Virus record (IMG/VR): IMGVR_UViG_2681813201_000018
Location: 1 to 31,647 of that record
DNA: 31,647 bases
Reading direction: 5' to 3' (one strand)
Source: a virus
Lineage: Duplodnaviria > Heunggongvirae > Uroviricota > Caudoviricetes
Shown here in pieces: positions 6,001-9,000 of the stretch (the first letter of the stretch is position 1; each line of letters starts with the position of its first letter). A program made the position numbers.

Positions 6001-9000
6001 CTTTAATACCGAGACGTTTTCTGACTTTGTCATTTTTTGCTTCGTAATACAGTGGGTAAACTTGTTTATCGGTGCTCATTGTTTTTTAACCTCAACTCAG
6101 ATTAAAATTCGTTTGTTCAGTGAATAATCTTGCCGGATACACACTGTTCATAGCCTGTGCCATACGCAGGCTATTTCTTTCAGATTTCACCTTTTAATTT
6201 CATTGCAATAAGAGTTGCCAGAAATTCGGCTTTTTTTTCTGCGGGCAGATTCTTTCCGATATGCACCAGGCACATTTTTTTTGACGCCTTCGTTAAGTGT
6301 TTTAACGTTGCCTGATGGACCGTCGATATCAACCACAGTGAAAGGGGTTTCTTTATTTTCTGTTTTAATCACGTAGCCAATACGCTTTCCTTCCAGGCTG
6401 ACTTCGTGAACAATGTCATCAGTAGTAACAACAGTGGCTTCATAACTGGTAATCATGTTTTTCTCCTTAATTAAGGTTGAGCGAATCCCTGCCATTGCTG
6501 GCATAAATTCAGTTTCGGATAGTCAGTTAATTAAAGTTCGTGTGCCATCTGGTCTTTTTCGGCACAGATTTCACTACAATATTTTTTCATTTCCGTCGTT
6601 GGTATAACTCCACGCATGAAATGAAGTGGTCTTGTAATGATTTTGCTTTCTTCAATTTCTTTATTGCAAAGGTGATAAGCACATTTTATTTTCTTAGTCA
6701 TTACCATGACTCCGCCTTTACAGGTAAACCATCACGACCGAGGAAGACTCTAATCATGCAGTCAGAAATGCATGTTTTTGTAGTCAGGCTACGAATATAA
6801 AGTTTTCGCTTTTTAATATTGTTTGCCGAGGCGATATATGTCCGACCTTCATGAAGAACATAATCGCCAGGGGTCACACACTGACGTGGTATTTCATCAG
6901 TTCCGAAGTGATGAGCAATCATAATTATCTCCATTTTTACAAATGAATTTTGTCGATGCGGTGCCTGGTGCCTCCAGGTGACGTTAACCAGTTAACAATT
7001 AACGCCGGATAATCCACCCATAACACTGATGCTTTTAACTGTGCCGCGTGCGCTTAGCCGCATTCACCGCATCACAAAATTCACTTTAAAAAGGGGCGGC
7101 AGGGCAGCTACGGAGTAGAACTGATGCCGCCAAAGACTAGACACAGCAATGTCGTTATTTACAACCGGAGGCGCACTCCCACCATTTAAATTTAACAGAC
7201 AAGACCGACTCTTTATGGATACCGGAAATGCGCCTTCGTGTTGTGCCCGGTTTTATTTCACCACCTCCGGGCTTTGGTGGCCTCGGCTATACCCCTACAG
7301 CAAGAATATTGAATTAATCCAATAAATGGTTTAGCTGGTATTTTTGGCAAGCCAGCGACGTGCGCCAGCTTCGGTTTTAAACGATTTGCTTTTGGTATAC
7401 GTCATGGCGGTGAATGTGCCGTCCTGATTGGGAAACACGCCACATACCAGAGATTCGTTGTTGCCAAGATCGATAGTATCCATGTTGACCTCATTTCCCC
7501 TTAACGCCGGGTGGCGGAACGTTTTATCTACTGCGCTTTGTATCAATCAACAACTGCCGTCATGTTCGTATGCCTCAGGCTGGCTACTTAGCCCTGTTCA
7601 GTGGCTGGATAACTCGAGGTATTGTCCTGCCGTTCTCTGGTGGGGCGTTGTTTGGATATGCTTATTAAACACAATACGTTTTCTTATGTCAACACGAAAT
7701 GTGTTTTGTGGTGGATGTCATATGATGATGGTACAAAAAAGCCCGCTGATAGCGGGCTGATTGGCATATTACTGTGATAGCAAGATCATTACTCCGGTGG
7801 GGGATTATCTTTAAGCCTGCCTCTCAAATATTTTTCTACATACTCATCGATTTCTTTTAGCCGGACTTCAAATAGCTCAATCATTCGTTGTTGTTCTGAG
7901 CCCGGTAGCTGGTTAAACAACTCAAGAAGTTTTCGTTGGGATTCATTTAACCACAATTCAGAAGATTCCTGTTCTCCAAATAGGAGCTCAGGAGGAGATA
8001 TGCCAAGTGCCTTTCCCAATACGACAGCGTCATGCACTCCAACATTTCTGCTGCCCGCCTCATAGTTACCTATACGCGATTGCGTCCATCCGCAGATTTC
8101 AGCAAGTTTTCCTTGAGATAAACCAAGCTTCTGCCTGCGCTCTTTAAGACGCATTGCAATTTTGTCATTGAGCCTACTAGCGGCAATTTTTTCGTTTTCT
8201 TTTTCCATTGCATCCTTGTATCACGAATCGTGATTTACATAAAACACAAAACAGCTTGACCATATAACACAAGGTGTGTTTAAAATTGTCATCGGAGGTT
8301 TTCAATGAACAAAATTTCAACATATCGAAAACAGCTTGGGCTGTCTCAAAGACAACTTGCTGTTCAGTTAGGGTGGATACAAAGCCGACTGGCAAATTAC
8401 GAAGCAAATTTTCGTACCCCTGGACTAGAGGAGTGCAGAAAAATTGTTTCTACCCTTAATCGGCTTGGCGCTCGTTGTGGACTTGACGATGTATTCCCCC
8501 CAGACGGTAAGCATAGCGAAAACAGCATAGGAGCGGTTGATTCATGAAAATCAGGCATGAGCATATCGAATCAGTGTTGTTAGCCCTGGCTGTTGAAAAA
8601 GGGCAGGCATGGGTAGCCAATGCCATTACTGAAGAATATCTGCGCCAGGGGGGCGGCGAATTGCCCCTTGTACCAGGCAAGGACTGGAACAATCAGCAGA
8701 ATATCTATCACCGTTGGTTGAAAGGTGAAACGAAAGCGCAAAGGGAAAAAATTCAGAAACTGATCCCTGCGGTTCTGGCAATTCTTCCGCGCGAGCTGCG
8801 TCACCGACTCTGCATCTTCGATACCCTGGAACGCCGTGCATTACTGGCGGCGCAGGAAGCGTTGAGTACGGCAATTGATGCGCATGATGAGGCAGTCCAG
8901 GCCGTTTACCGGAAAGCACATTTCAGCGGTGGTGGGTCGCCCGGCGATTCTGTCGTAGTGCATTGATTGAAATTAATCGTGCCGGATTGTTTTGTTCGGT

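Follow-up and report, generated by a model that had tools for sequence, protein, structure and literature searches.

A one-base insertion in a run of adenines of racC, the gene of a reported retron-toxin blocker, in a Rac-type prophage: very probably a genuine, heritable pseudogene-type allele

The virus record IMGVR_UViG_2681813201_000018 (Caudoviricetes), analysed here over 31,647 nucleotides and called 'the window' below, includes the early-left operon of a lambdoid prophage of the Rac type, whose insertion site lies beside yebY. In this operon the gene racC, whose 91-residue product in Escherichia coli K-12 is a reported blocker of a retron toxin, carries one additional A in a coding run of adenines, and its reading frame is shifted for the last third of the protein. 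In our assessment, held with considerable confidence, this is a genuine, heritable allele of the pseudogene type: the insertion is inherited and has arisen more than once, and it would have deprived the gene of its function without polar effect on the genes that follow and without consequence for the lysogen.

The gene contains two runs of A on its coding strand, which we call tract 1 and tract 2 (Table 1). Alignment with K-12 MG1655 and with strain 3059 reveals a single extra A at tract 1, eight (A8) instead of seven (A7), as the original prediction of a +1 frameshift at this run had supposed. That prediction had also drawn attention to the second A8 run; it is present, but it is not aberrant, as the intact K-12 and 3059 alleles have A8 there too. 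As encoded, the product is 89 residues long, and its tail, GVKKNVPGAYRKESARRKKSRISGNSYCNEIKR, ending in NVPGAYRKESARRKKSRISGNSYCNEIKR, is strongly basic (isoelectric point 10.6, with lysine or arginine at 9 of 29 residues). The adjacent (+1) frame reads KKMCLVHIGKNLPAEKKAEFLATLIAMKLKGEI up to a TGA lying 7 nt beyond the stop of the encoded open reading frame (ORF), and all 31 of its residues are identical to those of the K-12 RacC tail. At the junction, the peptides of the two frames are ...GVKKNVPGAYR and ...GVKKMCLVHIGK. Coordinates and both tail peptides, as first given, were reproduced exactly by reading and translation, except that the interval 6187-6456 covers the encoded ORF only, whereas the remnant of the full gene reaches 6180.

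The same conclusion follows from family profiles. When one A is deleted in silico, the resulting 91-residue protein matches NCBIfam NF007306 from position 1 to 91 of 91, with 202.7 bits for a cut-off of 171; for the encoded product the score drops to 129.4 bits, below the cut-off, and the match covers profile positions 1 to 64 only. PHROG 4778 repeats this pattern (133 bits as encoded against 202 restored), and the profile matches of the encoded product reach positions 62 and 64. Pfam has no model for RacC, and yielded only DUF2969 at E = 0.02, below its cut-off. The two-helix C-terminal tail conserved in the family (...LPAEKK..FLA..IAMKLKGEI) is found here in the +1 register alone, and is absent from the product. 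Otherwise the gene closely resembles K-12 racC (NF007306 / PRK09790): it has the same place between ydaE and recE, the same ribosome-binding site and the same start, residues 1 to 60 differ at 4 positions, and over 461 nt the DNA identity is 94.6%; the difference lies in A8 in place of A7 at codons 59 to 61 and in the unrelated basic tail of an 89-residue protein. Matches to these 461 nt were also found in 1870 of the 5426 complete E. coli genomes, where the usual annotation of the gene is racC. Judged by homology, the racC-like gene of the window is thus a disrupted member of the RacC family and not an intact one. The Prokaryotic Genome Annotation Pipeline (PGAP) marks the identical sequence as a 'frameshifted' pseudogene in the O157:H7 strains Z869 and Z1813, at 6180-6456 in window coordinates. 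The window as a whole contains 7 A/T runs of at least 8, where composition-preserving shuffles predict 0.8 in 31.6 kb, and the call of a frameshift rests on homology, not on these statistics. Besides those of racC and recT, such runs lie at 17932-17939, 20327-20334 and 21322-21329.

The allele is common. Its exact 89-residue product was found in 113 index blocks of the assembly collection searched, and on 73 contigs (NCBI, Logan, ENA), compared with 139 contigs for the matching intact protein and at least 1000 for K-12 RacC. Two of the 5426 complete genomes, both O157:H7 but from different hosts, contain the exact 81-nt A8 allele, and the same 81 nt with A7 are present in many O145:H28, O55:H7 and O157:H7 strains. 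Identity to the window is 100% over 1.8 to 6.1 kb in Z1813 and in two contigs (L005, L009); in two others (L006, L007) the racC-recE segment is the same but the region upstream of it differs and is mosaic, and one (L008) has 17 mismatches. A sequencing or assembly error, one of the options initially left open, is excluded by this distribution; the option of a genuine pseudogene at a slippage-prone tract is supported, also by the PGAP label. As a mutation the allele is an ordinary homopolymer one, already annotated 'frameshifted' in RefSeq.

The window and O157:H7 Z869 (NZ_CP062782.1) are 99.95% identical over the first 11.3 kb only. From about 11.4 to 31.6 kb the comparison gives a mosaic of rearranged blocks of 88 to 99% identity, which rules out identity of the two over the whole window; to judge from this alignment, the prophage is a relative of that of Z869 with different replication and late-region modules.

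Which of the two frames is the older one was asked of more distant relatives. Seventeen intact family members, of 63 to 87% identity, all keep the tail in the RacC frame, and so do the divergent homologues P0063, P0074, P0081, P0086 and P0092, as well as P0160 and P0161, which an exhaustive profile search returned as the most divergent relatives. Divergent homologues lack the basic tail. Several of them have neither A run (they read, for example, VKAMCL, VRNLCV or AEERYEF), and the runs are therefore not a feature of the family. Among 55 distinct intact genes, the head region shows a clear signature of the RacC frame, with 30 of 55 variable sites synonymous in it against 9 to 11 of 55. Where two backbones carrying A8 differ from each other, most of the differences leave the residues of the RacC frame unchanged and alter those of the basic frame (P/S, Y/H, Y/D); pairwise synonymous and non-synonymous counts between few alleles are too small to be used. 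By these comparisons the RacC frame is the ancestral one. Intact homologues sharing the basic tail would have argued the opposite. Entries with such a tail do exist (P0001, P0006), but as an A8 derivative or through shifts at tract 2, and they do not bear this meaning because each basic-tail backbone has A7 counterparts and divergent homologues keep the tail in the RacC frame. The exhaustive search returned 18 representative clusters, all of them close relatives or fragments, and no remote homologue that would inform on function.

Insertions at tract 1 are not confined to the lineage of the window. A second backbone (P0001; O157:H- 493/89, DEC3F, H 2687) also has A8 at this place, while O55:H7 CB9615, DEC5A and many other strains have A7 on that backbone, from which at least two separate origins of the insertion follow. 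Alleles on this second backbone similar to that of the window account for 44 + 30 + 17 contigs. The protein database also contains shifts at tract 2 (A9, A6 and A7); ETEC1717 has A7 there and is annotated as a pseudogene. Some entries (P0010, P0013, P0007, P0043, P0047) carry one shift at or close to tract 1 and another at or close to tract 2, so that the C-terminal frame is restored after about 15 out-of-frame residues; they may be real compensated alleles or assembly errors.

A census of run lengths was drawn from IMG/VR by scans with flank-anchored patterns in which the length of the run was left free, and which are therefore unbiased as to length; the list of the best 80 viral loci with full-length matches favours intact genes and was set aside for this purpose. 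At tract 1, 122 of 129 loci are normal, 5 have one base more, 2 one base less and none is interrupted. Tract 2 is A8 in 133 of 152 loci, A7 in 11, A9 in 4 and interrupted in 4. Shifted copies thus represent 5% at tract 1 (7/129) and 10% at tract 2 (15/148 uninterrupted), and they belong to several haplotypes: four for the longer and two for the shorter form of tract 1, ten for A7 and four for A9 at tract 2. Both tracts are accordingly polymorphic in length between close relatives, as contingency loci are. All 10 racC loci of a scan of species-representative genomes are in frame, and the 5 sequenced phage records with racC all match at the length expected of an in-frame allele.

Two A8 runs of the neighbouring gene recT, uninterrupted in the window, served as control; dedicated scans were made for them, an earlier control having had only 16 usable loci. 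In about 74% of the IMG/VR copies these runs are broken by a synonymous AAG (94/128 and 88/119), an interruption of which the census gave no case at either racC tract. Of the recT copies with an uninterrupted A8, 3/34 and 2/31 (5/65 in total) have changed in length, and the instability of racC is not above this level (Fisher p = 0.80 for tract 2 and 0.54 for tract 1). Since they do not differ from the control, we consider the racC tracts to be ordinary homopolymer hot spots, which fits the finding that indel rates in E. coli climb exponentially with run length (PMC8510543). Two of the racC contigs (L022, L019), with 90 to 91% identity to E. coli RacC, come from metagenome-assembled genomes labelled 'Candidatus Nanosynbacter sp.' and 'Proteobacteria bacterium', and are most likely mis-binned E. 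coli prophages.

How the allele may have arisen and what it may do can be outlined as follows. Replication slippage would have lengthened the coding A7 (Lys59-Lys60-Met61, AAA AAA ATG) to A8. Ribosomes would read residues 1 to 60, enter the -1 register, add 29 unrelated and highly basic residues and stop 7 nt early. The 91-residue RacC was found to be the strongest blocker of RcaT, the toxin of retron-Sen2, and to block RcaT of retron-Eco9 as well; it blocked RcaT even without inducer. RecE triggers the retron by degrading its multicopy single-stranded DNA, racC-recE forming a linked blocker-trigger pair (Bobonis et al., bioRxiv 10.1101/2020.06.22.160242). In the window these two genes are likewise neighbours, in an unchanged order; recE is intact, but the blocker gene is frameshifted. 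As RacC is the reported blocker and RecE the trigger, and as recE is intact, this prophage probably keeps the trigger of the retron and has lost, or sees weakened, its blocker. Polarity on recE and recT, both intact, is unlikely, because the two stops are only 7 nt apart and nearly the same mRNA would be translated. The allele would then be tolerated and continue to circulate, the gene being located in a repressed early-left prophage operon.

A structural model agrees with a loss of function. For an intact member, AlphaFold2 (mean predicted local distance difference test 77.9, predicted template modelling (TM) score 0.64) places five strands between residues 5 and 51, followed by helices 54-68 and 72-88, both helices lying in a single compact domain. 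A shift after K60 is predicted to remove half of the first helix and the whole of the second, and to keep the sheet. Since a PDB fold search with this model gave nothing significant (best E = 0.26, TM below 0.45, OspA sheet fragments), the structure offers no functional lead.

Several observations weigh against an inactivated allele. With 73 contigs against 139 for its intact counterpart, the shifted form is frequent for a deleterious allele, although over-sampling of clonal O157:H7 could account for the high count. In the tail, the frame-selection test on the 55 intact genes gives a trend only, 23 of 52 variable sites being synonymous in the RacC frame and 14 of 52 in the basic frame (p = 0.10). 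The AlphaFold2 model is of only moderate confidence, and the alignment behind it is shallow, with 17 close relatives; as modelled, the retained sheet of 60 residues might suffice to block RcaT. Nothing was found in the literature on the part of RacC that contacts RcaT, and blocking is reported for the 91-residue K-12 protein only. Finally, slippage may rescue the A8 allele at a low level. Three alternative readings, and a fourth that denies the insertion, are considered below.

The shifted protein could be functional, its N-terminal sheet, alone or with the basic tail, still blocking RcaT or doing something new. The first 60 residues are indeed the best conserved part of the family, and the allele is common, as are its counterparts on the second backbone. 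Moreover, the sequence suggests that a -1 ribosomal slip or an added A in the transcript would yield the same basic-tail product from the A7 allele, maybe at trace level; this is a curiosity, not evidence of function. Against this, the basic tail is missing from the divergent homologues, its frame has accumulated mostly non-synonymous differences between the two A8 backbones where the RacC frame has accumulated synonymous ones, and its synonymous fraction among intact genes (the 14/52 above) is at the neutral level. The model, furthermore, puts both lost helices in the one compact domain. We regard a functional shifted protein as unlikely.

A second possibility is a so-called pseudo pseudogene, in which RNA polymerase drops one A at the A8 run, or ribosomes shift by +1, and enough full-length RacC is made to be useful. 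Such rescue of frameshifted genes is documented, at about 20 to 25% for the A11 run of tssM, for 'pseudo pseudogenes' with A9, and at about 10% for the A8 run of apoB; the RacC-frame tail is wholly intact, and as RacC blocks RcaT without inducer, small amounts might matter. The case resembles those of Baranov et al. 2005 (PMC1088944) and of Citrobacter rodentium tssM1, which uses A11 (PMC4256274), by its one-base frameshift in a coding poly(A) with an intact frame downstream, but those runs have 9 to 11 A's and are rescued by added A's, whereas the A8 of the window needs the loss of one A from the transcript, or a +1 ribosomal shift. With E. coli RNA polymerase, rescue of the deletion type reached 10% at T8 and was nil on the poly(A) runs tested; runs shorter than A8 showed no slippage activity, and deletion slippage fell further with lambda N (PMC6260861). 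Baranov et al. (PMC1088944) count A9 among the slippage-prone runs but call A8 a 'non-slippery pattern', and the racC run stays below the limit of at least 9 A/T used for transcriptional slippage in E. coli. Ribosomal frameshifting fares no better. The -1 slip known for A-rich heptamers leads into the third, unproductive frame; the productive shift is +1, with AAT, neither a stop nor a rare codon, coming next, contrary to what a programmed frameshift would call for; and for the 80 nt that follow the run, the fold is no more stable than those of shuffled sequences (z = -0.17), which gives no sign of a stimulatory RNA structure. Nor is an out-of-frame arrangement conserved, the sampled tract-1 loci being in frame with few exceptions and divergent homologues lacking the run. 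We therefore hold rescue by slippage to be very improbable.

The third possibility is a phase-variable switch, both A runs being selected for reversible silencing and restoration of the anti-retron blocker, a reading to which we give scarcely any credit. The length polymorphism among close relatives, with several haplotypes at both runs, is reminiscent of the contingency loci of Campylobacter, Haemophilus and Neisseria, double shifts that restore the frame exist (P0010, P0013), and the synonymous AAG interruptions so common in recT were not seen in racC. However, racC variants are as frequent as those of uninterrupted recT runs, and unlike phase-variable loci racC has no excess instability over its neighbour, no tract conserved in the family (divergent members have no runs) and no linked phenotype; E. 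coli alleles have diverged little, which can account for the uniform AAA codons. In addition, E. coli has active mismatch repair and is not known to have homopolymer phase variation of this type. A looser form, a reversible mutational switch in which racC is repeatedly lost (A7 to A8 at tract 1, A8 to A7 or A9 at tract 2) where no RcaT-type retron is met and regained by back-slippage or by a compensating shift of the P0010 type, also seems most doubtful. If a switch did exist, the A8 of the window would be the 'off' state of a contingency gene and not a dead gene.

Last, a miscalled homopolymer or an assembly artefact, the real genome having A7, is effectively refuted on the sequences at hand: homopolymer indels are typical of long-read and 454 errors, the two complete genomes that have the allele belong to a single UK O157:H7 series, and the recT A8 runs also vary in length in IMG/VR contigs, partly perhaps through errors, but the identical 89-residue product recurs across different projects and years and in at least three sequence contexts, and the hosts of the two complete genomes differ. 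Some length variants in public contigs may well be sequencing errors; that of the window is not among them.

Taken alone, a heritable pseudogene-type allele of racC is of small importance, since frameshifts at homopolymers are routine and the gene is an accessory one of a prophage. Reports of phage proteins that block a retron toxin are nevertheless few, and RacC is the subject of one; the natural frameshift alleles of O157:H7 and other lineages offer ready material for asking whether RcaT blocking requires the C-terminal helices of RacC, and whether RcaT-type retrons restrict prophages deprived of the blocker. The census also matters for annotation: among prophage contigs in public collections, about one racC copy in seven has a shift at either of the two A runs, and pipelines will split or drop such copies.

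On the minus strand of the window the gene order is int, xis, ralR, recT, recE, the racC ORF, ydaE and kilR, and past kilR come a RacR-like repressor and divergent ydaS/ydaT-like genes. The position of racC matches that in the K-12 operon (kilR-ydaE-racC-recE-recT), as expected of a RacC family member. The features are collected in Table 1.

Table 1. Features of the racC region and the recT control runs, in window coordinates
Feature	Position	Strand	Remarks
racC gene remnant	6180-6456	minus	277 nt, against 276 nt intact; ATG 6456-6454, normal RacC stop (TGA) 6182-6180; from K-12 racC alignment and PGAP
ORF as encoded	6187-6456	minus	89 aa: RacC residues 1-60 plus 29-residue out-of-frame basic tail; stop TGA 6189-6187
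Tract 1, A8 (T8 on the plus strand)	6275-6282	minus	site of the one-base insertion; A7 in intact alleles (K59-K60 and the A of the M61 codon)
Tract 2, A8, normal length	6231-6238	minus	E73-K74-K75 in the RacC frame; unaltered here, recurrent indel site in other strains
Displaced RacC-frame tail, MCLVHIGKNLPAEKKAEFLATLIAMKLKGEI and stop	6180-6275	minus	still open, identical to K-12
Shine-Dalgarno AAGGAG	6463-6468	minus	6 nt 5' of the racC ATG; invariant across alignments
Hairpin between racC and recE, ATAGCCTG...CAGGCTAT	6150-6174	minus	from alignment and fold
recE	3398-6079	minus	893 aa, intact; immediately downstream of racC
recT A8 runs (control)	3065-3072 and 2748-2755	minus	uninterrupted in window recT

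An in-frame ATG further upstream, at 6504, would lengthen the racC ORF by 16 codons (MPAMAGIRSTLIKEKN..., 6457-6504, minus strand), and a long form of 107 residues is indeed called 'protein RacC' in some database entries (P0042). The short form is favoured, because the strong AAGGAG precedes the ATG at 6456.

The hairpin between racC and recE has in K-12 a perfect stem of 10 bp and a TATGG loop, and in the window a stem with a C-A mismatch; its fold here is not significantly stable (z = -1.3). In the P0001-type allele (contigs L010 and L011; about 1790-1815 in L010) the loop is the reverse complement, CCATA, as if template switching at a quasi-palindrome had inverted it.

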